Shown here piece after piece: positions 4,488-63,140 of a stretch of 64,000 nucleotides of DNA; positions within the stretch are counted from its first letter, which is position 1; the number at the start of each line of letters is the position of its first letter. This stretch comes from Mobula hypostoma (taxonomy: Eukaryota), in the NCBI RefSeq assembly GCF_963921235.1, contig NC_086097.1, positions 38,070,001 through 38,134,000 on the forward strand. Reading direction: 5' to 3'. The position numbers and the translations under genes are program-made. Under the pieces are notes generated by a model that worked only from the letters and a program-made list of their open reading frames with translations, made no database searches and was not told the DNA's origin.

Positions 4488-4779
4488 GAACATTTTCACA
4501 AAAGACACATTGGGAAGAGATCTTGCCAAGATAGCTGTGGTAATTGGTAGGTTGATAACAGATATTGTTGGACAGATTTTCCTCTGGAGAAGGAGACAGA
4601 GAGATTGAGAAAGAGGAGAGAAGTCTCAGAAATGAACCAAGTGAATTTAGGGGCAGGGTGGAAATTGGAGGCAAAGTTGATGAAATTGTTGAGCTCAGCA
4701 TGGGTGCATGAAGTAGTGTTAATGTAGTGCAGAAAGACTGCGGCTCTCCTGACTGTACCTGTTCCCAGCCTCTGAACCT

Positions 4780-8235: not shown

Positions 8236-9592
8236 AGAATCAGGTTTAATATCACTGGCATATGTCACGCAATTTATTGCTTTTGAGACAGCAGAAAATT
8301 GCAATACATAATTATAGAAAATAAAAACAGTAAGTATTCAGTTTATAAATTAGTTAAATAAGTAATGTAAAAACAGAAATTTTAAAAAATAGTGAGGTGA
8401 TGTTCAGTCACAGACAAGAGAAAATCTGCAGATGCTGGAAAGGCAAGCAACACACAAAATGCTAGGGGAACTCAACAGGCCAAGTAGCATCTATGGAGAA
8501 GATTACAGTCAATGTTTCAGGCCGAGATCCTTCAGCAGTCCTGCCAAAGGGTCATGGCCGAAAAACGTCGACTGCTCTTTTCCATAGATGCTGCCTGGCC
8601 TGCTGAGTTCCTCCAGCATTTTGTGTCTGTTGTGAGGTGGTGTTCATGGGTTCCATTTAAATTCAGAATTAGGTGGCAGGAGGGAAGAAACTGTCCCTGA
8701 ATCACTGAGTGTGTGTCTTTAAGCTCCTGTACCTCCTCCCTGATGGTAGCAATGAAAACAAGGCATGACCTGAGTGATGGGGATCCAGCATCCAAAGTTA
8801 AAAGTAAATTTATTACAGAAGATTACTGAAATTTATTACTACCCTGAGATTATTTTCTTGTGGGCATTCACACTAAATACAAAGTAACAAAATAGAATGA
8901 ATAAAAAACTGCACACAGCAAAGACAAACAACTGATGTCCAAAAGACAAATCATGCAAATAGAAAAAAGAAAAATAAGCAAAATAATTAAATAAATACGT
9001 TAAAAGTATTGAGAACATGAGCTTGTAGCGTCCTTGAAAGTGAGTCTGCAGGTTATGGAGTCAGTTCAGCAGTGGGGTGAGTGAAGTTATCCACACTCAT
9101 TCAGGAGCCTGAAGGCTAATAATAACTGTTCCTGAAACCTGGTGGTGTGAGACCCAAGGCTCCTATACCTCCTTCCTGACTGCAGCAATGGGAAGAAAGC
9201 ATGGGCTGGATTGTGGGCGTCCTTGATGATGGATGCTGCTTTCCTCTGACAGCACACCCTGTAGATATGCTCAGTGCCGGGGAGGGCTTTACCATATCCA
9301 TTTCTTTTTGTAGGCTTTTACGTTCAAGGACATTGGTATTTCCATACCAGGCTGTGATGCAAGCAGTCAATATACTGTCCACCATGTGTCTATAGGGTTT
9401 GTCAGAAGTTTAAATGACATGCCGGATCTTCGCAAACTTCTAAGAAAGTAGAACTGCTGTCGTGCCTTCTTTGTAATGGCATCTACGTGATGGGCCCAGG
9501 ACAGATCCTCTGAAATGATAATGCTGAGGAATTGAAAGTTGCTGATCCTCTCCATCTCTGATACCATGATGAGTACTTGCTCATAGCTCACC
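8236..9592 (-). mobile_element. Two Rex1/Babar-type LINE 3' fragments (~8236-8790 and ~8795-9592)
   Basis: ORFs 9367-9606 (ERISNFQFLSIIISEDLSWAHHVDAITKKARQQFYFLRSLR) and 9116-9385 (SILTACITAWYGN). Confidence 0.8.
8407..8631. mobile_element. Fold-back mini-element made of two inverted PLE pseudo-LTR ends
   Basis: Arms are reverse complements meeting at ~8535-8540; 15-bp TSD gtgaggtg(a/g)tgttca at 8392-8406 and 8632-8646. Confidence 0.9.
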
Positions 9593-11569: not shown

Positions 11570-12127
11570 ATTCAGACCCCACTTGGAGTACTGTGTACAG
11601 TTCTGGTCACTTCACTACAGGAGGGATGCATATGCTACAGAGAGAGTGCAAAGGAGATTTACAAGGATGTTCCCCGGATTGAAGAGCATGCCTTATGAGA
11701 ATAGGCTGAGTGAACTCGGCCTTTTCTCCTTGGGGCAATGGAGGATGACAGGTGACCTGATAGAGGTGTATAAGATGATGAGAGGCATTGATTGTGTGAA
11801 TAGCCAGAGGCTTTTTAATCAGGGCTGAAATGGCAAACACAAGGGGGCATAATTTTAAGGTGCTGGGAAATAGGTACAAGGGGGATATCAGGGGTAAGTT
11901 TTTCACACAGAGTGTGGTGGGTGTGTGGAACGCACTGCCAGCGAAGGTGATAGGGACAGATACAATAGGGTCTTTTAAGGGACTCTTAGGTAGGTATATG
12001 GAGCTTAGAAAAATAGAAGACTATGTGGTAGAGAAATTATAGGCAACTTCTAGAGTAGTTTACATGGTTGGCACAGCATTGTGGGCCGAAGGGCCTGTAA
12101 TGTGCTGTAGATTTCTATTCTCTATGT
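11570..12127 (+). mobile_element. CR1 (HER1-like) LINE 3' end
   Basis: EYCVQFWS..ERVQRRFTRMFPGL; TRGHNFK..FFTQSVVGVWNALP; gggccgaagggcc hairpin + ttctat tail. Confidence 0.92.
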
Positions 12128-14087: not shown

Positions 14088-14166
14088 CAGGGTTTCCCGA
14101 CCATTTTTATGCCATGGACCTCTACTATTAACTGAAGGGTCTGTGAACCCCACGCTGGGAGCCCTG
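14088..14166. mobile_element. ~80-bp hAT/Charlie-type MITE (decayed)
   Basis: TIRs cagggtttcccga / gctgggagccctg; homologous to 26613-26691. Confidence 0.7.
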
Positions 14167-14573
14167 GGTCCAGATGGACCTCCATAGGGCATGCAACAAG
14201 GTCCTACAGCGTAGGCTGGTCCCGAAAGTTAAGACACATTAGATGCAAAGTGAGCTGGCTAAACTGGATCTAAAATTGGCATGGTGCTAGGAGGCAGAGG
14301 GTACTGTTGGTAGGATGCTATTCGAGTGGAAGTCTGTATTCAGTAATTGAGATTGGTGCTAGTTTGCTTGTTGATTGTGATGTGCATTAGTGACTTGGAT
14401 GTGAATGTGGGGAGTGTGATTAGTACATTTGCAGATGCTGCAGAAGTTGATAGCATTGTGAATAGCAAATAAGTTGTCTAAAACTACAGCAGAACATAGA
14501 TCAGATGGACCATTGGGCAGAGAACTGGCTGATGGAATGTAATCCCAACAAGTGAAAGGAGATACTTCACTTC

Positions 14574-15815
14574 TTACTTCAGTGGTTGGTAAGTTGATGG
14601 AGAAGATCCTGAGAGGCAGGATTTATGAACATTTGGAGAGGCATAATATGATTGGGAATAGTCAGCATGACTTTGACAAAGGCAGATCATGCCTTACGAG
14701 CCTGATTGAATTTTTTGAGGATGTAACTAAACACATTGATGGAGGTAGAGCAGTAGATGCAGTGAATATGGATTTCAGCAAGGCATTTGATAAGGTATCC
14801 CCTGCAAGGCTTATTGAGAAAGTCAGAAGGCATGGGATCCAAGAGGACATTGCTTTGTGGATCCAGAACTGGCTTGCCCACAGAAGGCAAAGTGGTTGTA
14901 GAGGGGTCATATTCTACATGGAGGTCAGTGACCAGTGGTGTGCCTCAGGGATCTGTACTCTTTGTGATTTTGATAAATGACCTGGATGAGGAAGTGGAGG
15001 AATGGATTAGTAAATTTGCTGATGACGCAAAGGTTGGGGGTGTTGTGGATAGTGTGGAGGGCTGTCAGAGGTTACAACGGGACATTGATAGGATGCAAAA
15101 CTGGGCTGAGAAGTGGCAGATGGAGTTCAACCCAGATAAGTGTGAGGTGGTTCATTTTAGTAGGTCAAATATGATGACAGAATATAGTGTTAATGGTAAG
15201 ACTCTTGGCAGCGTGGAGGATCAGAGAGATCTTGGGTTCCGAGTCCATAGGACACTCAAAGCTGCTGCGCAGGTTGATTCTATGGTTAAGAAGGCATACG
15301 GTGCATTGGCCTTCATCAATCGTGGGATTGAGTTAAGAGCCGAGAAGTAATTTTGCAGCTATATAGGACCCTGGACAGACCCCACTTGGAGTACTGTGCT
15401 CAGTTCTGGTTGCCACACTACAGGAAAGATGTGGAAACCATAGAAAGGGTGCAGTGGAAATTTACAAAGATGTTGCCTGGATTGGGGAGCATGCCTTCTG
15501 AGAATAGGTTGAGTGAACTTGGCCTTTTGTCCTTGGAGCGACAGAGGATGAGAGTCATTGATCGTATGGATGGCCAGAGGCTTTTTCCCAGGACTGAAAT
15601 GGCTAGCACGAGAGGGCACAGTTTTAAAGTGCTTGGAAGTAGGTACATTTTTAAGAGTCTCTTTTTAAGAGACTCCTGGATGGATGGGTACATGAAGCTT
15701 AAAAAAATAGAGGGCTATGGGTAACCCTAGGTAATTTCTAAGGTAAGGACATGTTCGGCAGAGCTTTGTGGGCCGAAGGGCCTGTATTGTGCTGTAGGTT
15801 TTCTATGTTTCTATG
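14574..15815 (+). mobile_element. Young CR1 LINE, 5'-truncated RT
   Basis: LTSVVGKLME, DFSKAFDKV, SGVPQGSVL, KFADD in ORFs 14552-14980 and 14787-15350; tail ttctatgtttctatg. Confidence 0.95.
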
Positions 15816-16958
15816 AGATGCCATTTGGGAAGTCATATAGGGATAGAACATAAATCGTAGATGGTAGGGCACCACGGAATGTTATAGTTCCCTGAAAGTA
15901 GCTGCGTGGCTTTATAAGGTGGCGGCGAAGACAAATGGTATACTGGCCTGTATAGGCTAGGCATAGAACATATAAGTTTGGACTTTATGTTGCTACTTTC
16001 CAAAACTGTGAGACCGCATTTGAAGTATCATGTGCAGCTCTGGTCACCACTCCAAAGGAAGGATGTGGTTCTGCTGGAGAGAATGCCGAGGAGACTCGAT
16101 GGAATCTTGCCTGGATTGATTATGGGGTATGATTGAATAAGCTAGGTTTGCTTACCCTGGAGTGAATGAGGCTGAGAAGTAACCTGATAGAGGTCTATAA
16201 AGTTATAAGATGCATAGGTGGTATAGATAGTTAAAATCTTTTCTTCATAGTAGATGTATCAAAAACAAGTGTTCATAGGTTAGAGGTGAGTGGAAGGCAT
16301 TTTAAAGAGGAGTTGAGAGGTAATTATTTTTTACACAGGGAGTGGTTGATTTCCAAAATGTGCCACCAGAGCAAATGATGGAATCAGATACTGTACAATC
16401 ATTACGTTCAAAAGACATTTAGGCAAACAGGTATCCTGGAAGGATACAGAAACCATTGCAGGCAAGCATTTTAGGATCAGCAAGGAGGCTGGCATGTACG
16501 TGGTACACTGTAGGGCTCATTTCTGTGTGTATGACTCTATGACTCTATCACTGCTTGATACTGTCTAGGTTTATCTTGTATCAACAGACCAAAGCCAGAT
16601 GACAAGTGCGAATATACATACGCACAAATTCAAATCTGAATCAAAGCAATATCCCGGCAAATGGAACACTTTCTTCATTTAATAATTTGTTGAAAATCAT
16701 CAAAAATGATCAAATGTTATAACCCACAATAGTGACAATAGTTCAGGAGTACTTCATTAGACAGGCCCTTTATGATGTCTTGATGTCATGGATAAGTGGA
16801 AGTTCTTTCTAATACCACATTTTTTCTCAATATTACACTATCTGCCAACTTGCCCCCTCAGTTAACCTGTATCTATCCCAATGCAGATTCTTTGCATTCT
16901 GTATTCTACCAGATACTCTGTCTGTCGTGGTACTGTCAACAGATCTGGTTATGATAAA

Positions 16959-17179
16959 GCAGCGCACACAAAATGCTGGAGGAACGCAGCAGGTCAGGCA
17001 GCATCTACGGAAGAGTAAAGAGTCGACGTTTCGGGCTGAGATTAGTCCTGATGAAGGGTCTCAGCCCAAAACGTTGACTGTTTACTCTTTTCTATAGATG
17101 CTGTCTTGCCTACAGAATTCCTCCAGCATTTTGTGTGTGTCGCTTGGATTTCCAGCAACTGCAGGTTTTCTTGTCTCTA
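16959..17179. mobile_element. Second fold-back PLE mini-element
   Basis: Inverted arms meet at ~17041; hammerhead at 17044-17079 (GAAA>AAAA); 11-bp TSD gttat(g/a)ataaa at 16948-16958 and 17180-17190. Confidence 0.9.
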
Positions 17180-17274
17180 GTTATAATAAACCTGGGCCTT
17201 TCACTCATAATAAAGATTATAAATACCTGAGCACTGATCCCCATGGCACTGCAGTAGTTATTGCTGCCAGTTCA

Positions 17275-18992: not shown

Positions 18993-19130
18993 CGGTTTTG
19001 ATGAAGGGTCTCGACCTGAAATGTCGACTGTTCATTTCCTATCTAGATGCTATCTGACCTGCAAAGTTCCTCTGGCATTTCTTTTTGTATGTTGCTCCAT
19101 GCCGGCATCTGTGGTCTTTCTTGTGTCTCT
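18993..19130 (+). mobile_element. Short PLE terminal copy starting at a decayed hammerhead
   Basis: ttgatgaagggtctcgacctgaaatgtcgactg...gcatctgtggtctttcttgtgtct. Confidence 0.8.
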
Positions 19131-27613: not shown

Positions 27614-28162
27614 TACCAGTTAAAACTTTGAAGAACCTGGAATTTTTTAGGTCCATTGGTTCAGTCTGTTTTATTAAGTTGGTCAGAAATGATGTGTGTG
27701 TTGAGGGGATGAGTGAAAAGGGGACATTTTCTCCTTGGGGCTGTTTGTTCTGAAATAGATATTTTTCAAAATTCACAATAGTTGTTGCCTTTATAGTTAA
27801 TGTCAGTTGTATTATTTTTAGAACCTGACCGGTAGGGTGACCAGCCATTTCACAAATGCCCAACCCTGGTTCCACAGGGCAGTTTGGCCTACAACTTGTA
27901 GTCAGTAGTGAATTGGTAATGTTCTCTGCAGACATCAAGAGGAAATTACATTTACCCTATATGGTTCATCTACCCCAAAATCAGCAGTACAGGGCCCAGC
28001 AGTGAAATCCTCCATGTTAACTCCATGTGGGTGGAGCCAAAACTTGGTCTGCCCACAAATACTGAAAAAGCAACTGGCAAACCACATCAGCCCAGTGATT
28101 CTCCCTGCTGAAAAGGAACAGTAGTTTAGAAACAATGGTAGTGTAGAAGCAGGAATAGACCT

Positions 28163-28852
28163 TATAGAACATAGAACGGCACAGTGCGGATCATTCAGCC
28201 CATGATGTTGTGCCAACCTTTTAACCTACTTCAAACTAAATCTAACACTTCCCTCCTACATAACCCTCCATTTTTCTATCATCCATGTTCCTATCTAAGA
28301 GTCTGTTAAATGGCCCTAATGTTTCTCCCTCTACCACCACCTCTGGCAGCATGTTCCATAGGCCCACTAATCTCTGTGTAAAAAAAACACACACTACTTC
28401 TGACACCCCACCTATATTTTCCTCCAGTCATTTTAAAATTATGCTCTCTCATATTAGATATTTCTGCCATAGGAAATATGGTACTGGCTGTCATAGAACA
28501 TAGAAATCTACAGCACATTACAGGCCCTTCGGCCCATAATGTGCTGACCATGTAATCTACTCTAGAGACTGCCTAGAATTTCCCTAGCGCATAGCCCTCT
28601 ATTTTTCTAAGCTCCATGTACCTATCTAAGAGGCTCTTAAAAGACCCTATTGTATCCACCTCTACCACCGCCGCTGGCAGTGCATTCCATGCACCCACCA
28701 CTCTGTGTGAAAAACTTACCCCTGACATCTTCTCATATTTCCAAGCACCTTAAAACTATGCTGCCTTGTGTTGGCCATTTCAGCCCTGGGAAAAAGCCTC
28801 TGACTATCCACACGATCAATGCCCCTCATCATCTTATACACCTCTCATCCTC
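28163..28852 (-). mobile_element. Two adjacent CR1 3' ends (older ~28163-28460, younger ~28492-28852)
   Basis: atagaacatagaa tails; caggcccttcggccc hairpin. Confidence 0.85.
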
Positions 28853-29870: not shown

Positions 29871-29903
29871 ACCTCAGAGAAGAGCCATGAGAGTAAAGTC
29901 CAA

Positions 29904-30071
29904 CTTGTACTTTCTATCGTGCCTCTCCACCACGACAAGAGAAGACCCGTGATCTAGCTGACTGCAGACTGTAAAATCCAGCTTGTATTTTCTATCGTGC
30001 CTCTCCACCACGACAAGAGAAGACCTATGATCTAGCTGACTGCAGACTGTAAAATCCAGCTTGTATTTTCT
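29904..30071. repeat. 78-bp tandem repeat, ~2.15 near-identical copies
   Basis: ctatcgtgcctctccaccacgacaagagaagacc at 29914 and 29992. Confidence 0.95.
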
Positions 30072-30342
30072 CTCACTTAAGATTTAAAAAGAACAATAAA
30101 GAACAAAAGAACAACTGGTTAGGCCAAGGTACCTTGACATGTCAAATGACTATTTCTGACATTCAGAAATCATATTTACAGAACTATTCAAGGAAAGCAA
30201 AGAGAAAGTAGCATGTATGCAGCCCTATCATTTGGGAACACCGCCTAGTGACAGCTTAAGGTTATTTGTATGGTTTCTGCCTGCCTGGAGTTCAGGACTG
30301 TCTGTTTGACAATGCAGACAACCAGAACTGTAGCTTTGGTTT

Positions 30343-31146: not shown

Positions 31147-31403
31147 TGAGCCACTGCTGTAGACATGAATCCAAATGGACTGCTGCTGAAAGGCAAAGGA
31201 GCCTGAAAATAGACTAGGGTCACTAACGTCAGGGCCTTGATTCTGCTGTTGATCAAAATCAGCCAGAAGACCAACAGACTGGTACTCCTCCCTACTGAAA
31301 GCAGGCAGCGGCCAACATTAAATCCTAAAACTCGAAGCAGGAGTCCCTAAAGCCATTCAATTAAATCACAGCTTGTCCTGCAGGCCAAGTGAGGGCAGAT
31401 TCC

Positions 31404-33424
31404 CATAGAAACGTAGAAAACCTACAGCACAATACAGGCCCTTCGGCCCACAAAGCTGTGCCGAACATGTCCCTACCTGAGAAATTACCTAGGGTTGCCC
31501 TCTATTTTTCTGAGCTCCACGTACCTGTCCAGGAGTCTTTTAAAAGACCCTATCGTATCCACCTCCACCACCGTCGCCGGCAGTCCATTCCACGCAGTCA
31601 CCACACTCTGCGTTTTTAAAAAAAAAACTTACCCCTGACATCTCCTCTGTATTTACTTCCAAGCACCTTAACACTGTGCCCTCTCATGTTAGCCATTTCA
31701 GCCCTGGGAAAAAGCCTCTGACGATCCACATGATCAACGCCTCTCATCTTATACACCTCTATCAGGTCACCTCTCATCCTCTATTACTCCAAGGAGAAAA
31801 GGCCAAGCTCACTCAACCTATTCTCATAAGGCATGCTCCCCAATACAGGCAACATCCTTATAAATCTCCTCTGCACCCTTTCTGTAGTTTCCACATTCTT
31901 CTTTTAGTGAGGCAACCAGAACTGAGCACAGTACTCCAAGTGGAGTCTGACCAGGGTCCTATATAGCTGCAAGATTACTTCTCGACTCCTAAACTCAGTC
32001 CCACGATTGATGAAGGCCAGTGCACCATATGCTTTCTTAACCACGGAGTCAACCTGCACAACAGCTTTGAGTGTCTTATGGACTCGGACCCCAAGATCCC
32101 TCTGATCCTCCACACCGCCAAGAGTCTTACCATTAATACTATATTCTGCCATCATATTTGACCTACCAAAATGAACCATCTCATACTTATCTGGGTTGAA
32201 CTCCATCTGCCACTGCTCAGCCCAGTTTTGCATCCTATCAATGTCTCGCTGTAACCTCTGACAGCCCTCCACATTATCCACAACACCTCCAACCTTTGTG
32301 TCATCAGCAAATTTACTAACCCATCCCTCCACTTCCTCATCCAGGTCATTTATAAAAATCACGAAGAGTAGGGGTTCCAGAACAAATCCCTGAGGCACCC
32401 CACTGGTGACCAATCTCTATGCAGAATATGACTCATCTACAACCACTCTTTGCCTTCTGTGGGCAAGCCAGTTCCAGATCCACAAAGCAATGTCCCCTTG
32501 GATCCCATGCCTCCTTACTTTCTCAATAAACCTTACATGGGGTACCTTGTCAAATGCCTTGCTGAAATCCATGTATACTTATATTCCGTCTGGGTAGCCT
32601 CCAAGCTGATGGCATGAACATTGACTTCTCTAACTTCCGTTAATGCCCCTCCTCCCATTCTTACCCCATCCCTTATTTATTTATTTATTTGTTGTTTTTT
32701 ATTTTTTCCTTTTTTCCCCTCTCTCTGTCCCTCTCACAATTACTCCTTGCCTGCTTTCCATCTTCCTCTGGCGCTCCCCTCCCCCTTTCTTTCTCCCTAG
32801 GCCTCCCGTCCCATGATCCTCTCCCTTCTCCAGCCTTGTATCCCTTTGGCCAATCAACTTTCCAGCTCTTAGCTCTATCCCTCCCCTTCCTGTCTTCTCC
32901 TATCATTTTGGATCTCCCCCTCCCCCTCCCACTTTCAAATCTACTATCCCTTCTTTCAGTTAGTCCTGTTGAAGGATCTCGGTCTGAAACGTCGACTGTG
33001 CTTCTTCCTATGGATGCTGTCTGGCCTGCTGCGTTCCACCAGCATTTTATGTGTGTTGCTTGAATTTCCAGCATCTGCAGATTTCCTCGTGTTTGCGTCC
33101 ATATACACTACGTCTATTGCTCTACTTTCATCAATGTGTTTAGTCACATCCTCAAAAAATACAATCAGGCTCATAAGGCACGACCTGCCTTTCGCAAAGC
33201 CATGCTGACTATTCCTAATCATATTATGCCTCTCCAGATGTTCATAAATCCTGCCTCTCAGGATCTTTTCCATCAACTTACCAACCACTGAAGTAAGACT
33301 CACTGGTCTATAATTTCTTGGGCTATCTCTACTCCCTTTCTTGAATAATCCGCAACCCTCCAGTCCTCCGGAACCTCTGCTGTCCCCATTGATGATTCAA
33401 AGATCATCGCCAGAGGCTGAGCAA
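31404..33424 (-). mobile_element. Young CR1 LINE (RT region) interrupted by a PLE
   Basis: ORFs 31904-32413 (SGVPQG, FADDTK) and 32956-33303 (SLTSVVGKLME); cccatag at 31402-31408 and 33425-33431. Confidence 0.95.
32580..33097 (+). mobile_element. PLE pseudo-LTR inserted in the CR1 RT VYMDFSKAFD motif
   Basis: 12-bp TSD tccatgtatact / tccatatacact at 32568-32579 and 33098-33109; hammerhead 32962-32997 with CTGTTGA core. Confidence 0.92.
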
Positions 33425-35886
33425 CCCATAGCCCATGATTTTCTTGTTATCTGAATATCTCTTAATTTCCATATTCAATTCATTCTGCAACTGAACACTG
33501 ACAACAAAATTCTAAATATTTGTATTCCTGTACATGTTTATCTGAAGATTGCAAGTACGAATGTAATGTGAAAAGGATAGAATCCCAGCACATCGAACTG
33601 GAATACATGATTTAGCCCTTTCTCCAACTTGGATGTCAGAATTCAGCTGCTGCATATTCGTAGATGGGGACTCTGGATGTAGGTTTGATTCCAATATGAC
33701 ATTCAAGTTGCATGCACACATTTGGCATTGTTCCTACTGGAAAAGATATTGGAGAAAGCATTAGTACATGCATTGCCACTGCCACCTGCAAGAATCAATA
33801 GCTCATGGTATAATGTGCATGCTCAGTGCTCCAGACAATACCATGTATTACCCTCATAGAGCTAGGCATGCATGCCCAACAAGGTAGAGTCAGCTTCCCT
33901 GTCTACCACTCAATCTGGCACTATTTAAAAGCATAATTGATTACTTGAAGATTACTTGCTGGTTGATTTCTACTGAATTTTGCTTTGGTTCAGTATGTAT
34001 CTGCAGCTTTTCAGATTGTTGTCTTAAGTCGTTCACCCAGAACTGAAGAAACAGTCTTGCTGTAAAACTTATGTGAATAGCTGGACATGTTTTAGTGTTC
34101 ATTCCTCTGTGGGAGGAATAGGAGGAATCAGCTGATGGTACAGAGCATGGGACAAACTGCTGGACGAGAGAGGGAGTGGGAGAAGAGTCTATAGCAAGCA
34201 GCCTTCCATATACTCAACAGTTTTGGAGGAAAGGTTCTTTTATTTGATCCTTAATAATGGATGAAGTATCTGTAATTCATTAAAGATATCCCCATTGAAA
34301 TATTCTTCAGCCCCAGACTCCCATGAGGATGGCTTTACTGCTGAATATTGGTGACTGTCTTCTGTGTGCTTTTGTCTGTGAGCTGTGGTTCACTATACTT
34401 TGGGGAAGTCTACTGACCTTGCAAGGCCACATGTTTGCTACTGCTATGTGCTGACGAGAGGAAGTAAAATGCTCTCAGAATTCTTGCCATTGGTGTCCTT
34501 TATCTGATGTTTTATGACAAACTGGAATATGTTGTGGATGTCTCCATGGCCTCAGGAAGCCCTGGTGTAATAACTGCAAGCCCACACTGAAGGACGGGAG
34601 CAAGCCCGCGATAGCAGCAGTGACACTTTGATTCTGTCAAACTGAATTAGCATGGCGGAAATGTCACTCTCATTGCAGCATCCATTCGTTATGTGAATCT
34701 GGTTGTACTTCAGTGCAAGTTGACTGAAATTGCTCATCAATTGCTGTGTGATTACAGTTGTCCCAGTGGAGATGGTCATCTCCTCCATGTTTAGAACAAA
34801 AAAAAATGGCATGTCAGTTCTGTGAAAAGTTTGGCAAGGTTCTGACTCCCAGATGGTATATGGCCACCCTGGTCCAGGCACGTTACTACCAATGACATAG
34901 GTGGAAAAAGGGATGAGGTCCTGAAGAGAGAATAAAATGAACTAGGTAGAAAGCAGGACCTCTGGGGTAGTAATCTCTGGATTACAGCCTGTGTCATGTG
35001 CCAGTGAAGGTAAAAATAGGATGATATGGCAAATGAATATGTGGCTGAAGAACTGGTAGAGGAGACAGGGTTTCAGATTTGTGGATCATTGGGGTAGGTA
35101 TGATCTTTACAAAAGGGGACAGGTTACACCTGAACTCAAGGGGACCAGTATCCATGTGAGCAGGTTTGGTAGAGTTGTTGGGGTGGATTGAAACTAGGTT
35201 GACAGGGGAAATAGGAACCAGAGTGTTGAGTCAGGAGATGGAGCAGTTGGCGTAAAGGTAGATGCAACATTGGGAGAGACTGTAAGGAAGTTTAGGGCAT
35301 ATTTCAGTCAGTTGGATGTATTTACTTTAGTGCAACCGGCGTCAGGAACAAGAATGATGAACTATAAACGTGGACCTGGATTTGGTTGTCACTAGAGCAG
35401 TAATGGCTGCTGTATGTTCCGGGCTGTAGATGTTTCAAAGCGGATGGGTGTGTGGGGGTAAAAGAGGTGGGGGAGTGGGATTGATAATCAGGGATACTAT
35501 CACAGCTGCAGAAAGAGAGGACATTATAGATGGATCATCTACTGAGCAGTGTGGGTGCAAGTGTAAACAGGAAAGGAGCAATCACTCTACTGGGATTATT
35601 CTAGAACACCCCCCCCCCCACCAAAAGTAACAGAGACATTAAGGAGCACATCACAAGGCAGATTTTGGAAAGGTGTAAAAATAACATGATTGACTTCAAC
35701 TTCACTAACTTTGATTGGGACCTCCTTAGTGCAAAGGTCTTAGATGGGGCTGAATTTGTTAAGTTTGTCGAAGTATGCCTGACAATATATAGACAGGCCA
35801 ACTAGAGAAGAGGCCATACTGGATCTAGTTCCAGACAATAAACTTGATCATGTGACAGATCTCTCAGTGGGAGAGCATTTTGGAGA

Positions 35887-36870
35887 TAGAACATAGAACA
35901 GTAGAGCACAGTGTAGGCCCTTCGGCCCACAATGTTGTGCCGACCCTCAAATCCTGCCTCCCATATAACCCCCCCACCTTAAATTCCTCCATATACCTGT
36001 CTAGTAGTCTCTTAAACTTCACTAGTGTATCTGCCTCCCCCACTGACTCAGGCAGTGCATTCCACGCACCAACTACTCTCTGAGTCAAAAACCTTCCTCT
36101 AATATCCCCCTTGAACTTCCCACCCCTTACCTTAAAACTATGTCCTCTTGTATTGAGCAGTGGTGCCCTGGGGAAGAGCCGCTGGCTATCCACTCTATCT
36201 ATTTCTCTTATTATCTTGTACACCTCTGTCATGTCTCCTCTCATCCTCCTCCTCTCCAAAGAGTAAAGCCCTAGCTCCCTTAATCTCTGATCATAATGCA
36301 TACTCTCTAAACCAGGCAGCATCCTGGTAAATCTCCTCTGTACCCTTTCCAATGCTCCCGCATCCTTCCTATAGTGAGGCAACCAGAACTGGACACAGTA
36401 CTCCAATTGTGGCCTAACTAGTTTTATAGAGCTGCATCATTACATCGTGACTCTTAACTCTATCCCTCAACTTATGAAAGCTAACACCCCATAAGCTTTC
36501 TTAACTACCCTATCTACCTGTGAGGCAACTTTCAGGGATCTGTGGACATGTACCCCCAGATCCCTCTGCTCCTCCACACTACCAAGTATCCTGCCATTTA
36601 CTTTGTACTCTACCTTGGAGTTTGTCCTTCCAAAGTGTACCACCTCACACTTCTCCGGGTTGAACTCCATCTGCCACTTCTCAGCCCACTTCTGCATCCT
36701 ATCAATGTCTCTCTGCAATCCTCGACAATCCTCTACACTATCTACAACACCACCAATGTTTGTGTCGTTTGCAAACTTGCCAACCCACCCCTCTACCCCC
36801 ACATCCAGGTTGTTAATAAAAAACACAAAAAGTAGAGGTCCCAGAACAGATCCATGTGGGACCCCACTCG
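35887..36870 (-). mobile_element. Young CR1 3' part nested antisense in the older CR1
   Basis: ORFs 36467-36874 and 35864-36406 with well-preserved CR1 RT C-terminus. Confidence 0.95.
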
Positions 36871-37482
36871 TCATAATTCCCTGACCTTTACAGGGGTAGG
36901 AGCAGTCAGTACGGAAAGGTATTTAATTGGGGGAAGGTAAATAATGCTATTAAGCAGGAACTTGGGCGCGTAAATTGGCAACCGATGTACTCTAGGAAAT
37001 ACGCATTGGAAATGTGGGCGTTGCATTGGTTTCTGGATAGATTTCTTCCATTGAGGCAGGGAAAAGAAGGTCATGGTTGACAAGGGATGTGGAACATCTT
37101 GTCAAGTTGAAGAAAGAAGCTTACTTATGGTTTAGGAAGCAAGGATCAGACATGCTCTGGAGATTTATAGATTAGCCAGGAAGGAGCTTAAGAAGGAATG
37201 TAGGAGAACTAGAAGGGGACATGAAAAAGGCTTTGGTGAGTAGGATTAAGAAAAACCTTACAGCATTCTACACATACTGGAAGAACAGGAGGTTGACTAG
37301 AGTGAAGGTAGGACCAATCAGGGATAAGAGAGGAAACGTGCTTGAAATCCTTAAGTACTTTGCTTCAGTATTCGCCAGTGAGAGATCTTGACAAATGTGA
37401 AGTCAGCGTAGAACAGGCTAATATGCTGGAGCATGTCAAAATTAAGAAAGAGTAGGTGCTGGAAATTTGAAAAACATTAACA

Positions 37483-40442: not shown

Positions 40443-42465
40443 ATTCCATGGAATTGAAGAAACAGTCAACGTTTCAGGCCGAGACCCTTCATCGGGACTG
40501 AAAAGGAAGGGAGAGGATGTCAGAGTAAGAAGGTGGGGGGGGGGTGGTGGAGGAGGGGAAGGAGTACAAGCTCGAAGGTGATAGTGAACCCAGGTGGGTG
40601 GGAAAGGGGGTATGAAATAAGAAACTGGGAGGTGATACATGGAAAAGGTAAAGGGCTGGAGAAGAAAGAATCGGATGGGAGAGAAGAATGGACCATGAGA
40701 GAAAGGGAAGGTGGGGGGGGGTAACAGGGTGAGGTGAAAGGCAGGTGAGAAGAGGAAAGAAGAGGGGCAGATTGGGGAAATGAAGAAGGGGGAGGGGGGG
40801 AAATTACTGGAAGTTGGAGAAATTGATGTTTATGCCACCAGGTTGGAAGCTACCTAGATGGAATATAAGGTGTTGCTCCTCCAACCTGGGAGTTGCCTCA
40901 TTGTGGCAGAAGAGGAGCCTATGAACTGACATGTTGGAACGGGAATTGGAATTGAAGTGATTCACTACTGGGAAATCCTGCTTTTTGCGTTTGGAGCAAA
41001 GGTCCTCAACAAGGTGGAACCTCAGTCTACCTTGAGTCTCACCAATGTAGAGGAAGCTGCATCAGAAACATTGGATACAATATACAACCTCAGCAGATTT
41101 GCAGGTGAAGTGTTGCCTCATTTGGAAGGACTGTTTGGAGTCTTGAATGGAGGTGAGGGAGGAGGTGAATGGGCAGGTGTAGCACTTTTTCAGCTTGCAG
41201 GGCTAAGTGCCAGGAGGGAGATTATTGGGGAGGGACAAATGGACAAAGGAATCACAGAGGGAGCGGTCCCTGTGGAAAGTGGAGAGTGAGGGGTGGGGGG
41301 AGCTAAAGCTGTGTTTGGTGGTAGGGCTTTGTTGAAGATGGAGGAGTTTGCGGAGATGATATTTTGGATGCAGAGGCTCATGGATGGTAGATGAGGACAA
41401 GAGGAACTCTATCCCTGTTAAGGCAACAGGAAGATGGGGTAAGCGCAGATGTCCAGGAAATGGAGAAGATGTGGGTGAGGACAGCATCAATGGTGTAGGA
41501 AGGGGAATCCTGTTCTTTGAAGAAGGACATCTCTGATATCCTGCAAAAGAAAGCCTCGTCCTGGGAACAGATGAGGCAGAGACTAAGGAACTGAAATAAG
41601 GGAATGGCATAGGAAGAGGGACAGTCAAGTCAGCGATGACAGTCACAAACGAGAGAAAATCTGCAGATGGTGGAAATCCGAGCAACACACACAAAATGCT
41701 GGAGGAACTCAGCAGGCCAGGCAGCATCTGTGGAAAGTAGTACAGTCGACACTTCGGGACGACACCTTCAGCAGGACATAGCAATGACAATCGGAAGGTT
41801 TATAAAAGTGAGTCACCTGCGAATCTCTTTGTCGATCACCTTTGGTCCATCACAAAAAGCAGGATTTCCCAGTGGCCAGCCATTTCAATTTCAATTCCAA
41901 TTCCCTTTCCCATTCCGACATGTCGGACCATGGCCTCCTCTTCTGCAATGATGAGGTTGGGGGTGGAACACTAAATATTCCGTTTGGGTAGCCTCCAACT
42001 TGATGCCATGAACGTTGATTTCTCCAAATTTTGGTAACTTCTTTCCCTCCCCTTCCCTGTTCTTTATTTTCCCACTCTGCCCCTCCTCACCTCTTCTGCT
42101 TACCTACTTATCACCTCCCCCTGGTGATCCTCCTTCCCTTTCTCCACTCTTGGAGCACTCTTCTCTCCTGCCAGATTTTTTTCTTCTCCAGTTATTTATC
42201 TCTTGCATGTATCACCTTCCAGTTTCTTTCTTCATCTCACCTCCCTAACTTACCTGGCTTTACCTATCACCTTCTAGCCCTGACCGCCCCCCCTCACCTT
42301 TCCTATTCTGGCATCTTCCCCCTTCTTTCTAGTCCTGATGAAGCGTCTCAGCTTGAAACGACGGTTTATTTATTTTCATAGAAGCTGCCTGACCTGCTTT
42401 GTTTCTCTAGCATTTTGTGTGTGTTGCTCTGGATTTCCAGCATTTGCAGAATCTCTGGTGTTTAT
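40443..42465. mobile_element. PLE with inverted arms (- ~40443-41810; + ~41825-42465)
   Basis: Decayed hammerheads at 40464-40499 (-) and 42331-42366 (+); terminal tail gatttccagcatttgcagaatct only on the + arm. Confidence 0.85.
41642..41779 (-). mobile_element. ~138-nt PLE terminal mini-copy nested in a PLE
   Basis: TSD agcgatgaca / agcaatgaca at 41632-41641 and 41780-41789; ends at hammerhead stem I. Confidence 0.8.
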
Positions 42466-43036
42466 GCAATATCCATGCAGCTGAGGTGATGTAGAGTCTG
42501 CACATCCTATCTTACAGACTTAATGGGCCAAATGGCCTAATTCTGCTCCTATGTCTTATGGTCTTATAGTATTGAGGGGAGAGGTAATGAAATCAGTGCA
42601 TCCACATACTGGCTGTTGTATGTAAATTCAAAGAAGCTGCAGGATCTGATAAGATGGGTTTGATGTGAACTGTCTTTTATAATAGCTGTCATTAGTCAAG
42701 GACTCGTATTGGCTAGTCCAAAAGTGGCTTCAGAAGCTGACTTGGCAATGAATACCATCCGTTCGCTAGCTGCAATTGCTTGTTTATCTGTACATAGTTC
42801 AAAATGATAAAATTATTTTGGTAGAAAGTGCTGTACATTTTGTTTGGGCAAAGTACTTTTCAGAGCTGAGAAAGGGACAAAATTTGCAGTATCTGTATCC
42901 ATGTCGTACTAATGCTTACATCCAAATTGTGCCTTGGTTGAAATTGTAAACAGATGAGTGATTTAGATGTAGTAGAAATTACTGTTAAGTGTGTAATTCA
43001 GGTGTGTATCCAGAAAGATCAACAGGTGTTGATAAC

Positions 43037-44635
43037 AACAGGAATTCTGCAGATGCTGGAAATTCAAGCAACACACATCAAAGTTGCTGGTGAACGCAGC
43101 AGGCCAGGCAGCATCTGTAGGAAGAGGTGCAGTCAACGTTTCAGGCCGAGACCCTTCGTCAGGACTAACTGAAGGGAGAGTGAGTAAGGGATTTGAAAGT
43201 TGGAGGGGGAGGGGGAGATCCAAAATGATAGGAGAAGACAGGAGGGGGAGGGATGGAGCCAAGAGCTGGACAGGTGATAGGCAAAAGGGATACGAGAGGA
43301 TCATGGGACAGGAGGTCTGGGAAGAAAGACAAGGGGGGTGGGGAGACCCAGAGGATGGGCAAGAGGTATATTCAGAGGGACAGAGGGAGAAAAAGGAGAA
43401 TGAGAGAAAGAATGTGTGTATAAAAATAAGTAACAGATGGGGTACGAGGGGGAGGTGGGGCCTTAGCGGAAGTTAGAGAAGTGGATGTTCATACCATCAG
43501 GTTGGAGGCTACCCAGACGGAATATAAGGTGTTGTTCCTCCAACCTGAGTGTGGCTTCATCTTTACAGTAGAGGAGGCCATGGATAGACATGTCAGAATG
43601 GGAATGGGATGTGGAATAAAAATGTGTGGCCACTGGGAGATCCTGCTTTCTCTGGCGGACAGAGCGTAGATGTTCAGCAAAGTGGTCTCCCAGTCTGCGT
43701 CGGGTCTCGCCAATATATAAAAGGCCACATCGGGAGCACCGGACGCAGTATATCACCCCAGTCGACTCACAGGTGAAGTGTTGCCTCACCTGGAAGGACT
43801 GTTTGGGGCCCTGAATGGTGGTAAGGGAGGAGGTGTAAGGGCATGTGTAGCACTTGTTCTGCTTACACGGATAAGTGCCAGGAGGGAGATCAGTGGGGAG
43901 GGTTGGGGGGGACGAATGGACAAGGGAGTTGCGTAGGGAGCGATCCCTGCTGAATGCAGAGAGAGCGGGGGAGGGAAAGATGTGCTTAGTGGTGGGATCC
44001 CGTTGGAGGTGGTGGAAGTTACGGAGAATAATATGTTGGACCCGGAGGCTGGTGGGGTGGTAGGTGAGGACCAGGGGAACCCTATTCCTAGTGGGGTGGC
44101 GGGAGGATGGAGTGAGAGCAGATGTACGTGAAGTGGGGGAGATGCGTTTAAGAGCAGAGTTGATAGTGGAGGAAGGGATGCCCCTTTCTTTAAAAAAGGA
44201 AGACATCTCCCTCGTCCTAGAATGAAAAGCCTCATCTTGAGAGCAGATGCGGCGGAGGCAGAGGAATTGCGAGAAGGGGATGGCGTTTTTCCAAGAGACA
44301 GGGTGAGAAGAGGAATAGTCCAGATAGCTGTGAGAGTCAGTAGGCTTATAATAGACATCAGTGGATAAGCCGTCTCCAGAGACAGAGACAGAAAGATCTA
44401 GAAAGGGGAGGGAGGTGTCGGAAATGGACCAGGTAAACTTGAGGGCAGGGTGAAAGTTAGAGGCAAAGTTAATAAAGTCAACAAGTTCTGCATGCGTGCA
44501 GGAAGCAGCGCCAATGCAGTCCTCGATGTAGTGAAGGAAAAGTGGGGGACAGATACCAGAATAGGCACGGAACATAGATTGTTCCACAAACCCAACAAAA
44601 AGGCAGGCATAGCTAGGACCCATACCGGTGCCCAT
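43037..44635 (-). mobile_element. Young 5'-truncated PLE: uninterrupted RT C-half + GIY-YIG endonuclease + pseudo-LTR
   Basis: MGTGMGPSYACLF, YIED, LPFLD, VYYKPT, C-x4-C-x2-C, GVIYCVRCSRCGLLYIGET..RLGDHFAEH; perfect 15-bp TSD acaggtgttgataac at 43022-43036 and 44636-44650. Confidence 0.97.
43131..43166 (-). ncRNA. Minimal type-I hammerhead ribozyme, intact core, GUU triplet
   Basis: Minus strand AGTC-CTGACGA-AGG(GTCTCGG)CCT-GAA-ACGT-T-GACT. Confidence 0.8.
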
Positions 44636-49930: not shown

Positions 49931-50600
49931 AAAGAAAATTAATTTGTTTGTCCAATGTCATACATGATTTTAATTATTTCCTTCTTGATAACGTGCTTTT
50001 GGACACCAGAAAATCCAACTGCTGATTGTTGTGAAGAAACAAAACGGCCTGAAGTAGCTTCTGATTAGATAGAACGTGTATTTCACAAGTGTAGTGATGG
50101 AGACAATGGTAGAAATGTTGCTTACTTAATTTTGGTTCTGCTGTCTTAATTGAAGACACTACTGTAATTGGTATGACTTCAGATCTTTTTCCAGGGGGAG
50201 TTTTGCGACGCAATAGTTGAATATGAACCAGAGCAGACACCCTCCTGTGGATGAGGTAAACTGGTTCCATTGGTAGTGGTGTTCATTAAAAATCCCTTGG
50301 CATTATTCAACAAAAACTGCATTATATTCTCCCGAGCCCCAAGTGACTCAAATAAATCTGATTAAATTTTTACTTTTGAAATCAAATGTTCAAAATGCTG
50401 CCAGATTTTCCATTAAAGCTGATATTGTTATTAATGTAATTTATTATGTTATTTAGATATTTATGAAACACAATAATTAGGATGTGTATATTTTATAAAA
50501 TTGAGTAATTGTCATTATAACCCCAAATCCTTATTTTAGTTGAAGAACAAATTATGTGCAATGGCTGTTAGTATTGGAGAATGGACACCTTACAATCATA

Positions 50601-50636
50601 AGTCCTGACGAAGGGTCTCGGCCTGAAACGTCGACT
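50601..50636 (+). ncRNA. Minimal type-I hammerhead ribozyme, intact core
   Basis: AGTC-CTGACGA-AGG(GTCTCGG)CCT-GAA-ACGT-C-GACT; predicted cleavage after C50632. Confidence 0.88.
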
Positions 50637-50738
50637 GCGCCTCTTCCTATAGATGCTGCTTGGCCTGCTGCGTTCACCAGCAACTTTGATGTGTGTTGCT
50701 TGAATTTCCAGCATCTGCAGAATTCCTGTTGTTTGCGT
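50601..50738 (+). mobile_element. 138-nt PLE terminal mini-element starting exactly at an intact hammerhead
   Basis: 11-bp TSD tta(c/a)aatcata at 50590-50600 and 50739-50749; near-identical to the reverse complement of 43037-43166. Confidence 0.92.
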
Positions 50739-50964
50739 TTAAAATCATAGAAATGGGTCATTTTGGCACATCCTCACTGACTTCCCTGTACTAATCTCAC
50801 TTGCAGACATAAGGACTGCATCCTATATTGCCTATTTGAGCATCTATCTAAATGCCTCTTAAATGTAGTAATTGTATCCGTTTCTACCAACCCTTCGGGC
50901 AGTGCATTCCAGATATCAATCACTTGCTGTGCAAAATAAACTTGAGCCTCAGATCCTCTTTAAA

Positions 50965-59623: not shown

Positions 59624-60366
59624 GAAGAGCCCCAAGAAGATGGGAAGGGTGAAGGCAGAGAGACTGATGAAACTGAGGTTCAGTCTGAAGACTACCCCCC
59701 CCCCCAGATGAGAGTGAAGAAGATTCTGAATCTGCAGAGGCCCGGGTAAGGGAAACGTTGGATATGGTCTCCCCTTTGGAAGGGGAAGATGCCTCCTGTA
59801 CTGAGAACAGCTCTGTCTGCACCAGCCACCCAGAGCTAGCATGCAGCCTGGAAGGGAACCACCCCACAGGGGAGGGAGTTGGCACTGAGGATGTCATTGG
59901 GCCGCCCAACACTGTGGAGAAAGGAGTTGCATCAAGTGATGAGGGGAGATCAGTTAGGTCAAGGGGTCAGAGTGGGAGCATTCTCCCTGAGAAAGTCATC
60001 AGGTCAAGCAGTCAGGGTGGGAGTGTTTTCCATGAGGAAGTCATTGGGTCAAGAGGTCAGGGTGGGCGTGTTCTCTCTGAGGAAGTCATTGGGTCAAGCA
60101 ACAAACACATTCCTGTCAGTACTGTGGGACATGATGCAGTGGTTGACAGTACAAGGAGCCCTGAGGGAAAGGACCAGGTAGGGGTGGAGGGTAACACCAC
60201 ACGAGAAGGGGTTAAAAGTGCCATGTCCAGCCCCACAACATCTGAGCATGAGGAGGTGAAAGGTGAACAGCTGGCAAGGCCGGCTAAGAGAAAACGAGCA
60301 GACTCCAGTGGACAAAACCTGGAGATGCCAGAACTTTCCTCTAAGTCGTGTGATGTTACAGAGTAA
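59624..60366 (+). pseudogene. Acidic low-complexity coding-like segment of unknown origin (~247 codons with one slip in a C-run)
   Basis: EEPQEDGKGEGRETDETEVQSEDY / PDESEEDSESAEARVRET + ORF 59758-60366; 3x45-bp in-frame repeat; basic RPAKRKR. Confidence 0.55.
59957..60100 (+). repeat. 45-bp (15-aa) in-frame tandem repeat x3
   Basis: tcaag at 59959, 60004, 60049, 60094; SRGQSGSILPEKVIR/SSSQGGSVFHEEVIG/SRGQGGRVLSEEVIG. Confidence 0.92.
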
Positions 60367-60381
60367 GTAATCAACAACCTG

Positions 60382-61148
60382 ATGGAGTTCAGCCCAGATA
60401 AGTGTGAGGTGGTTCATTTCAGTAGGTCAAATTTCAAGGCAGAATATAATATTAATGGTAAGACCGTTGGCAGTGTGGAGTAGCAGTGAGATTTGGGGTC
60501 CATGTCGATAGGACACTCAAAACTGCTGCGCAGGTTGACAGTGTTCTTAAGAAGGCATATGGTGTGATGGCCTTTATTAAACATGGGATTGAGTTCAAGA
60601 GCTGTGAAGTAATGTTACAGCAATATAAGACCTTAGTTAGACCCACTGTATTCAGTTCTAGTCCCCTCACTACAGGAAGGATGTGGATACTACAGAGAGA
60701 GTGCAGAGGAGATTTACAAGGATGTTGCCTGGATTGGAGAGCATACCTGATGAGAATAGGCTGAGTGAACTTGGACTTTTCTCCTTGGAGCAACGAAGGA
60801 TGAGAGATGACCTGATCGAGGTGTCATGTGGATAGCCAGAGGCTTTTTCCCAGGGCTGGAATGGCTAACACAAGGGGGCATAGGTTTAGGAAGTAGGTAC
60901 AAGGGGGATGTCAGGGGTAAGTTTTTCACACAGAGAGTGGTGGGTGCGTGGAATGCATTGCCAGTGATGGTGGTGGAGGCAGATGCAGTAGGGTCTTTTA
61001 AGAGACTCAAATAGGTACATGGAGCCTAGAAATATAGAGGGCTTTGCGACAGGAAAATTCTAGGCAGTTTTTAGAGTAGGTTACGTGGTCGGCACAACAT
61101 TGTGGGCTGAAGGGCCTGTAATGTGCTGTAGATTTCTATGTCCTATGT
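60382..61148 (+). mobile_element. Young CR1 3' part fused directly to the unknown segment
   Basis: atggagttcagcccagataagtgtgagg (MEF.PDKCE); tail gatttctatgtcctatg. Confidence 0.93.
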
Positions 61149-61707
61149 AGAATGAACTGCCAGAGGATGCTGGAGAGGCAAGTGCAAATACAATGTTCAA
61201 AAGACTTTTGGACAGGTACATGGATAGGAAAGGTTAGAAAAACATGGGACAAAGCAGGCAAATGGGACTAGCTTAGATGAGCATCTTCATAGGCATGGAC
61301 GAGTTGTGTTGATGAGTCTGTGTTACTCTGGGAGTCTATCACATTATTTAATCTGGCTGAATTCAATGCAATAAGCTACATTAATTATCTGGCTCTTTCT
61401 GGGGAACAAATAAATGAAACTATTTAATTTTTGTAGTAGATAATAATGGAATCAATGTTCCTTGAGTTGCTTTTTAGTCCCTGTAGTATATTCTCATTTT
61501 AATTTTGTAATGTTATCAGTGATCTTTCCCAACTATCATTGTAATTTGATGCAATTTTATGTTCAATATTTACATCAACTCTGATAGAAAAGTTTGATTA
61601 TCTTTTTTAAATTAAATTGTATCAGCAATTTAGAAATGAAAGTAATAATTAATTTGCAATATATTTAATGAAAAGTGAAGAAAAATTCAGTGTTGTGCAG
61701 AATTTTA

Positions 61708-61806
61708 CTCTTTTTTTTTCTCCCTTCCTCCTTTCATCTCACCTAATTTGTCTTTTCCTTTCCTACTTCTCTCCAGAAAGGATAACCATGTTTGCTGCCA
61801 TGCATG
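61708..61806 (+). other. Strong candidate 3' splice site (exon start 61777) with downstream TGCATG
   Basis: Branch-point-like cctaat 61742-61747, pyrimidine tract, ctccag| at 61776, Rbfox-type tgcatg 61801-61806; TE-free flanks. Confidence 0.5.
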
Positions 61807-62412
61807 CACCTGTTTAATCTGACATTTTTTCTGAGAATTTGTGAATATTTTGTTTGTTTGTTAATGGGCATGAAATTTCACTTGTGCAAAGCCAGTAGTT
61901 ATCCAACTATTTGTAAGGGACTTCCTGATGACAAAGTATATCAGCCAGGATTAGATGTATAAAATAAACAAAATAAAAGCACCAGAGTAACGGATTTGAA
62001 AGTTGCATTTTAGTGCTCTGAGAGATTTACCAGAGCACGGAATGCATCAAGATAAAAATATAGCGATCAGTTCAATAGGTGAAATCATTTTTCAGTTCTG
62101 TAGGCTTTCCCTTGGTCCCAATAGTTTCGACCTAATTCTTTTTTAATAGAATATACTGTTACAGTTGAGCTGTTTAAATCTGATAGGACAGTTGGACCCA
62201 GTTCAATTTCCCCAGAGTGCCTAAAGAAATGGGCAAAATGTGCTAGCACACAAATTCAGCAAGGGTGATGTCTGTTGCAGTGAAGTGCTAGGAGGTAGTT
62301 AGTTAAAGCTTCTTTGTCATTGCTGAGAACAACGAGGTTACAGTGCTATTCCAATCAGTGCAAAACAGCTTACTGGCAATTCAAGCACTAAAAACACGAT
62401 GAATATATTTAA

Positions 62413-63140
62413 AAGGCAAGACTCTTGGCTGTGTGGAGGATCAGGGGTTCTTGGGGTCCGAGTCCATAGGACGCTCAAAACCACTGTGCAGATTGACTCT
62501 GTGGTTAAGAAGGCATACGGTGCATTGGCCTTCATCAATCGTGGGATTGAGTTTAAGAGCCAAGAGGTAACGTTGCAGCTATATAGGACCCTGGTCAGAC
62601 TCCCCTTGGAGTACCATGCTCAGATCTGGTCACCTCACTACAGGAAGGATGTGGAAACCATAGAAAGGGTGCAGAGGAGATTTACAAGGATGTTGCCTGG
62701 ATTGGGGAGCATGCCTTATGAGAATAGGTTGAGTGAACTCAGCCTTTTCTTCTTGGAGTGATGAAGGATGAGAGGTGACCTGATAGAGGTGTAAAAGATA
62801 ATGAGAGGCATTGATGGTGTGGACAGTCAGAGGCTTTTTCCCAGGGCTGAAATGGCTAGCCTGAGAGGGCACAGTTTTAAGGTACTTGGAAGTAGGTACA
62901 GAGGAGATGTCAGGGGTAAGTTTTTTACGCAGAGAGTGGTGAGAGCGCGGAATGGGCTGCCGCAATGGTGGTAGAGGTGGAAACAATAGGGTCTTTTAAG
63001 AGACTCCAGGATAGGTACATGGAGCTTAGCAAAACAGAGGGCTATGGGTAACCCTAGGTAATTTCAAAGGTAAAGACATGTTCGGCCAAGCTTTATGGGC
63101 CGAAGGGCCTGTATTGTGCTGCAGGCTTTCTGTGTTTCTA
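62413..63140 (+). mobile_element. Young CR1 3' part
   Basis: ORF 62399-62761 VKKAYGALAFINRG..ERVQRRFTRMLPGL. Confidence 0.93.

Follow-up and report, generated by a model that had tools for sequence, protein, structure and literature searches.

Why do short pieces of a retroelement begin, copy after copy, at the first strand of a ribozyme? The question is raised by a stretch of 64,000 nucleotides from Mobula hypostoma (contig NC_086097.1, positions 38,070,001 to 38,134,000; hereafter the window), in which a first-pass annotation had singled out three short copies of a Penelope-like element (PLE) that appeared to begin at stem I of a hammerhead motif. We number the element from the A that opens stem I, q1 (position 50601 of the window, and 43166 in a long copy described below), with no q0 and with the predicted hammerhead cut after q32. 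The clearest short copy, at 50601..50738 on the (+) strand, belongs to a young subfamily and runs from q1 to q138 through the hammerhead, a spacer and an optional tail (50701..50738, (+)), the last lying between two preferred 3′ ends that correspond to start sites of the reverse transcriptase (RT). Its 11-bp target-site duplications (TSDs) are found at 50590..50600 and 50739..50749 (both (+)), with one mismatch and a null p of 0.007. The second copy, from an older subfamily, occupies 41642..41779 on the (-) strand, begins at about q2 and has a 13-bp TSD with two mismatches (41780-41792 / 41632-41644, p 0.02), so that two of the three are indeed TSD-flanked, as had been claimed. The third, at 18993..19130 (+), is a decayed member of another subfamily, 71-72% identical to the other two, and has no TSD above chance (p 0.44). 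A common start at stem I holds for 50601 (q1, 32 nt before the predicted cut) and 41642 (about q2), and for 18993 only approximately, its 5′ end being approximate. The idea that the three form one family does not hold: they are 71-79% alike, and each is tied to a different nearest long copy (97, 86 and 78%, six long copies compared). Elsewhere the window contains many fragments that we take to be CR1-like LINEs (11520-16240, 28150-28850, 31400-32420, 35860-36920 and 60380-63140), presumably L1-like RT fragments at 2080-4917, so labeled from their translations, and short tandem duplications at 29893-30074 and 59954-60100 with periods of about 78 bp and 90 bp, the second within a 225-codon open frame.

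Read from the sequence against the description of minimal hammerheads excerpted from PMC4209133, positions 50601..50637 (+) have the makeup of a minimal type I hammerhead and would be predicted to cleave themselves. Stem I is formed by 50601-50604 and 50633-50636, the core by 50605-50611 and stem II by 50613-50624 (all (+)); stem III is loopless and palindromic, the extra base before stem II is present, and the predicted cut falls after 50632. An Rfam scan of the whole window returned no family at gathering score, neither the hammerhead nor a tRNA, 5S or 7SL gene such as would supply the Pol III promoter of a SINE. In long copies, as seen at 43152-43175 (-), folding predicts that the pyrimidines upstream of q1 base-pair with stem II and with the core of the hammerhead, and with such pairing the ribozyme would be off in RNAs that reach upstream of q1.

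The parent element can be recognized in a long, 5′-truncated copy of the young subfamily at 43034..44635 (-), which carries the C-terminal part of the RT, a CX4CXXC linker, a GIY-YIG endonuclease, the pseudo-LTR, the hammerhead and the tail, and which is flanked by a 14-bp TSD read by eye. Its end (43034-43166) and the short copy at 50601-50738 are 97% identical over 133 nt. Over 97-98% of its length, an ORF in the window is about 50% identical to proteins whose precomputed Pfam annotation lists RVT_1 and GIY-YIG; when a 395-aa ORF fragment was itself scanned against Pfam, 0 families were returned. The linker before the GIY-YIG domain is visible in translation and fits the CX2-5CXXC pattern, a stated feature of Neptune-type PLEs in the available part of PMC8557442. 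Judged from its sequence, the parent is an EN+ PLE, of Neptune type by its linker and by its occurrence in a vertebrate-sized genome. An uninterrupted 1043-codon frame is found in 6 of 51 protein matches in the genome (for example, G000:C1:124734661-124737789). The leaders of these copies are nearly identical, and six near-identical leaders in at least six intact copies point to recent activity of the family. The first in-frame ATG of full-length copies lies after the tail, at about q171, which makes q1-138 the 5′ leader of the full element; q1-138 is also the 3′ end of every truncated copy, and partial tandems, as expected of a pseudo-LTR, occur in four of the six full-length copies. A 35-mer of the young subfamily has 39,363 exact occurrences genome-wide (3.48 Gb, 200 contigs). 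Within 244 kb examined closely (the window plus 18 stretches of 10 kb, 10 of them adjoining it) there are 53 relatives of the 138-mer, and 16 in the window including the 138-mer itself; a profile search of the 244 kb gave 57, with 0 in a reversed control. At 4493-5438 the window also holds two opposite PLE segments (about q-1354..-1121 inverted, then q-607..+97) that resemble a twin-primed inversion with deletion.

The distribution of 5′ ends was determined in the first 60 loci (63 arms) among the 39,363 exact matches of the young subfamily. These were anchored at q63-97, downstream of the hammerhead, so their 5′ ends are unselected; the sample comes from the first 4.7 Mb of one contig and leaves out copies truncated downstream of q63. 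Two loci with internal deletions, L046 and L077 (automatic ends q-48 and q-76), were reassigned by hand as long. Twenty arms, these two among them, extend past q-88. The remaining 43 ends are far from evenly spread: 21 fall in q-6..+8, 12 in q-49..-7, none in q-87..-50 and 10 in q10-62, or 0.035, 0.011, 0 (in 760 nt) and 0.0032 ends per nt, respectively. The peak is 11-fold above the downstream rate, with a scan-statistic p of 5e-5 under a constant rate for a 14-nt interval whose width was chosen after the data were seen. Ends break off beyond q-50 (P 0.002; one end if L077 is counted), although pyrimidines are as abundant in that far zone as in the near one. Thus, the 5′ ends pile up at stem I, with a shoulder out to about q-47, and about one third of sampled young arms (21 of 63) stop within a few bases of q1. 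The suspicion that the shared endpoint exceeded chance is borne out, and the endpoint-peak test, which had been set beforehand, found the clustering both in this sample and in genome-wide counts. A minor cluster of ends may also exist at q10-q19, close to where the alternative hairpin formed with the upstream pyrimidines has its 3′ foot (L002 3659-3789, L005 6962-7087, L006 3938-4021, L009 9548-9658, L029, L041 and L080).

Genome-wide, an end was counted as an element position preceded by non-element letters. This gave 865 of 33,647 for q1, 2,905 for q2, 1,428 for q3, 346 for q-4, 126 for q-14, 323 for q33 and 184 for q37, denominators other than 33,647 being estimates from the 63-arm sample; the 865 young copies counted at q1 are those with two purines in front. 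The implied end fractions, roughly corrected for flank composition, point mutation and the estimated denominators, are 0.10 at q1, 0.09-0.10 at q2, 0.02-0.04 at q3, 0.06 at q-4, 0.02 at q-14, 0.02 at q33 and 0.01 at q37; the counts also take in small deletions and head-to-head junctions, which makes each of these an upper estimate. The 0.10 at q1 is an upper estimate in particular, since short matches at head-to-head junctions shift the endpoint and contribute part of that count. The stem-I endpoint is seen across subfamilies of this one genome. An alignment artefact from a less conserved upstream region was ruled out by using one young subfamily and checking TSDs. Arms with the tail (11) and without it (10) are about equally frequent in the peak, so that position, not length, fixes the 5′ end, and a length-determined stop is ruled out. 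At the other end, 25 of the 63 arms finish at or before q107 and 38 beyond, the two fixed 3′ ends being about q97-104 or q133-143; a fixed 5′ zone combined with one of two fixed 3′ ends is what gives the copies their near-equal length. Finally, 10 of 15 solo TSD-flanked arms lie in the peak, which is therefore not made by head-to-head junctions.

What sets this endpoint? An RT stop at the ribozyme fold, one of two explanations first put forward, would be expected at the 3′ foot of the fold (about q36), yet ends amount to about 1% at q37. The peak lies on the far side, past the whole copied fold, so a block by RNA folding has the wrong geometry. A programmed endpoint does exist, and rather than the fold it more likely marks where the RNA begins, or a signal directly upstream that is bound by protein. 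Self-cleavage of the hammerhead could also have made the template 5′ end, and the count at q33 is about 2-fold that at the single control position q37. The main peak, however, is 32 nt upstream of the predicted cut, only 2 of the 43 sampled ends are at q33, both in head-to-head pairs, and six q33 loci inspected gave five head-to-head junctions, one internal deletion and no solo insertion. A cleavage-site peak was rejected on this basis, and we regard cleavage as a negligible prospect for the origin of the endpoint.

The other early explanation was a non-autonomous family, SINE- or retrozyme-like. We take this to mean a family that propagates itself, with transcription from an internal promoter and mobilization in trans. 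Such a family would have the defined ends, the TSDs and the thousands of young copies that are found here, and some secondary copying from short copies may occur. Against it, the 21 peak arms fall into seven haplotypes (defined by four diagnostic sites only), five of which are common to long copies, so the search for substitutions that set the short pieces apart from long PLEs turned up no lineage of their own at those four sites. Subfamilies that are 71-79% alike share this endpoint although each is tied to a long copy of its own, and 5′ ends are spread over q-47..+8, with and without the tail. The copies are dispersed, none of the 53 loci in 244 kb or of 60 loci of 257-375 bp is a head-to-tail hammerhead array, and the cleavage site does not define an end. 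A separate family is accordingly very improbable. The short pieces are made by the PLE machinery, as seen from their TSDs, from the match of their 3′ ends to the pair of internal start sites and from the haplotypes that they have in common with long copies.

Many insertions are two-armed, and these bear on how cDNA ends are joined. In the window, head-to-head insertions with the tail on one arm lie at 8407..8632 (junction q5/q1; 15-bp TSD, one mismatch) and 16957..17180 (junction q16/q1; 15-bp TSD, two mismatches); by eye, the 244 kb contain 10 such pairs and 13 solo copies starting at q1-19, and the tail is on one arm only in 10 of 10 pairs. The two arms share a haplotype in 15 of 17 two-armed copies. 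They differ at diagnostic sites in L045 and L062, so that two RNAs can serve one event, and snap-back of a single cDNA was discarded as the sole origin of two-armed copies. Three "solo" copies (L023, L040 and L053) have fillers of 10-17 nt resembling vestigial inverted arms, which suggests that solo and two-armed insertions form one continuum. The peak itself could be an effect of joining if the RT stopped loosely, the hammerhead cDNA folded on itself or paired with a second cDNA, and unpaired ends were trimmed to the stem foot. For the first 36 nt as a single strand, the predicted structure is one rod that q1 closes and not a three-way junction, and junctions via stem I or palindromes are common (L049, L065 and L075; about 40 of the first 100 q33 matches, by eye; five of the six q33 loci inspected). 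Joining through cDNA hairpins accounts for many two-armed junctions. As the cause of the peak it is improbable: cDNA folds computed with DNA energies are weak, at -2.4 to -4.5 kcal/mol, and q1 does not stand out among them, 10 of 15 solo TSD-flanked arms likewise end in the peak, and ends that reach out to q-47, with none beyond, are left without explanation.

We favor, at a probability of about one half, the reading that each short piece is a full run-off cDNA copied from the 5′ leader of PLE RNA, whose main 5′ end would be at q1. The PLE protein would nick and extend both strands of the target DNA, and the RT would start inside the RNA, about 100 or 135 nt in, at the two known internal sites, read through the hammerhead and run off the RNA 5′ end at q1. 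The resulting cDNA end would be joined, often via short matches, to the other side of the break, which gives a solo copy, or to another cDNA whose priming took place on the opposite strand, which gives a head-to-head pair. The RNA would start at q1, where the sequence resembles an initiator and is preceded by an AT-rich patch at -30, and minor starts would lie upstream. The upstream zone q-50..-1 (43167..43216, (-)), absent from short copies, is pyrimidine-rich and has an AT-rich patch at q-32..-25 and AG at q-4/-3 and q1/q2. When 16 long copies of several subfamilies are stacked at q1, A+T is 0.56-0.94 in q-32..-25 versus 0.06-0.44 in q-47..-36. Both q1 and q-4 match the initiator pattern, YYA(+1)NWYY. 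The lack of ends past q-50, the initiator fit at q1 and q-4 and the AT-rich patch across subfamilies are the grounds for reading the 5′ peak as a template end.

Precedents for parts of this scheme can be found in the portions of two papers available to us. A TATA and Inr-like pair is noted in a rotifer pLTR (PMC3846280). For an Anolis PLE, the protein cuts and extends both target strands, RT initiates within the RNA at the two sites between which the tail lies, near the junction of pseudo-LTR and ORF, and reads through the hammerhead, a template with a shorter 5′ end gives a shorter product, sequence beyond the start sites is required for initiation, and ribozyme mutations are without effect (PMC11167929). 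The two classes of 3′ ends and the one-sided tail seen here fit such internal initiation (PMC11167929). Other observations speak against a run-off at q1. None of the six full-length copies starts in q-6..+8 (P 0.07-0.08 against the sample rates); four reach past q-163, one ends at q-21 and one at q16, and the four imply that upstream-start RNAs or a template jump must also exist. There is no cap-derived excess of G before q1, G making up 35 among the purines in the first 100 matches listed, by eye. Read depth on 43010-43609 is given no weight on either side: it drops about 3-fold just upstream of q1 in a DNA run, a figure confounded by older subfamilies that align only over the hammerhead, and a 3.4-fold drop in two runs only guessed to be RNA has the same confounder. 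Nor do we weigh the finding that, of the joints in these reads, the 15 listed (126 more lay beyond the listing) include no GT-AG joint into q1-q3.

The upstream zone at 43167-43216 can be read in two ways, as a TATA-like patch with an initiator or as a branch point with a 3′ splice site. On the second reading the template would be unspliced and extended upstream, RT would stall where it meets a splicing intermediate, or factors that occupy the AG, the pyrimidine tract and the branch point directly upstream of stem I, and the hotspot would be the end of an intron. A pyrimidine tract precedes q1 in 16 of 16 long copies, with A at q1 in 14 and G at q2 in 15 of the 16, and the young family has a branch-point-like word 15 nt upstream, which counts for a splice signal. 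Read-through in four of six full-length copies and in about one third of arms would be accounted for as well. As far as the excerpted sources go, the intron of Penelope in D. virilis ends at helix I (PMC4209133), and the start of that element is 121 nt upstream of helix I (PMC2377424). Several observations nevertheless make the splice-signal reading the less probable of the two. Ends at q3, the would-be exon start, are about one third of those at q2, the short copies inspected share no upstream exon between TSD and q3, and the donor-like GTAA at the ORF stop is missing in the young family. No strong stop is found next to the branch-point A at q-14, a candidate stop hinted at by three or four sample ends and then rejected: its genome count of 126 is far below that of q1, and the fraction, about 0.02, has no matched control position.

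If run-off at q1 is the correct reading of the short copies, how do long copies arise? The minus-strand strong-stop DNA of LTR retroelements is a short cDNA that begins inside the RNA, extends as far as its 5′ terminus and consists of sequence present at both ends of the element. We tentatively consider it possible that PLEs use a comparable two-step route without a tRNA primer, in which a strong-stop cDNA of 100-138 nt extends to q1 and then jumps to the 3′ pseudo-LTR. RT would start in the 5′ leader, where the protein would bind, and copy to the RNA 5′ end at stem I; copying of the ORF would require the cDNA to jump to the 3′ pseudo-LTR, in which that sequence is repeated identically, and a second jump would rebuild the partial tandem. 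Short copies would then be failed jumps and long copies successful ones. The stem-I endpoint suggests this jump together with the need of initiation for sequence downstream of the tail, taken from the accessible text of PMC11167929: if sequence past the tail is needed, only the 5′ leader of a single full element is usable and long copies need a jump. Regeneration of the pseudo-LTR tandem is described as having no obvious mechanism in the part of PMC2377424 at hand. Five loci (L043, L046, L058, L070 and L073) carry local duplications or mis-joins in this zone that fit re-priming at an end. Linkage across q1 (r2 0.34) is similar to that within the two sides (0.35 and 0.27) in 25 long copies; this test shows no sign of frequent switches between lineages and would be blind to a switch within one RNA, so only jumps within one RNA or one source are allowed. 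At L046, q-48 is joined directly to RT-coding sequence about 1.35 kb upstream, and L046 and L047 (G000:C1, about 2456300-2458530) are apparently the two ends of one 2.1-kb inverted insertion.

Comparison with described systems separates what is shared from what is not. Strong-stop priming in LTR elements is by tRNA, whereas here nicked target DNA primes, the product is inserted directly, and strand transfer is only hypothesized. EN+ PLE insertions with a one-sided tail of 30-40 bp have the same RT with C-terminal GIY-YIG, pseudo-LTR, partial tandems, inverted arms and TSDs, and in the sections available their truncation is described as variable, without a reported stem-I peak, in contrast to the fixed peak here (PMC8557442, PMC3846280). 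The Poseidon element PAc of Anolis has the same two tail-bounding start sites downstream of the hammerhead, extends both target strands and likewise has no reads at the cleavage site; it differs in being Poseidon-type with its start codon in stem II, where ours is Neptune-type with an ATG at about q171, and the consulted portion of that study maps 3′ ends and leaves aside where short copies begin at their 5′ side (PMC11167929). Metazoan PLE minimal hammerheads show the same motif, mostly in single truncated copies (PMC4209133, in excerpt); in the present family, ends are set not by the cut but by the 5′ foot of the ribozyme or a coinciding signal. Non-LTR retrozymes, from what is accessible of bioRxiv 10.64898/2026.07.22.740005, likewise derive from PLE pseudo-LTRs and are non-coding with type I hammerheads, but they form tandem arrays of at least two hammerhead units, unlike the dispersed single or head-to-head copies without a lineage of their own described here. 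A metagenome scan for relatives in other species gave 0 matches. The open literature searched, with subscription papers and Repbase/Dfam outside its scope, contained no report of a stem-I truncation peak or of a PLE strong-stop product.

Previous work had already described the element as well as its hammerhead, tail and inverted arms; what appears to be new is the peak of 5′ ends at stem I, a firm pattern for which we infer the mechanism. Cleavage by the hammerhead has left no clear trace in this genome. Where such genomes are annotated with SINE-like elements or dispersed "retrozyme monomers", these can be by-products that the parent element has generated. A fixed 5′ endpoint is a measurable handle, and it predicts where the RNA starts. 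Should the template jump prove true, the genome would preserve, in its thousands of short copies, a record of the strong-stop intermediate and of the PLE start site.
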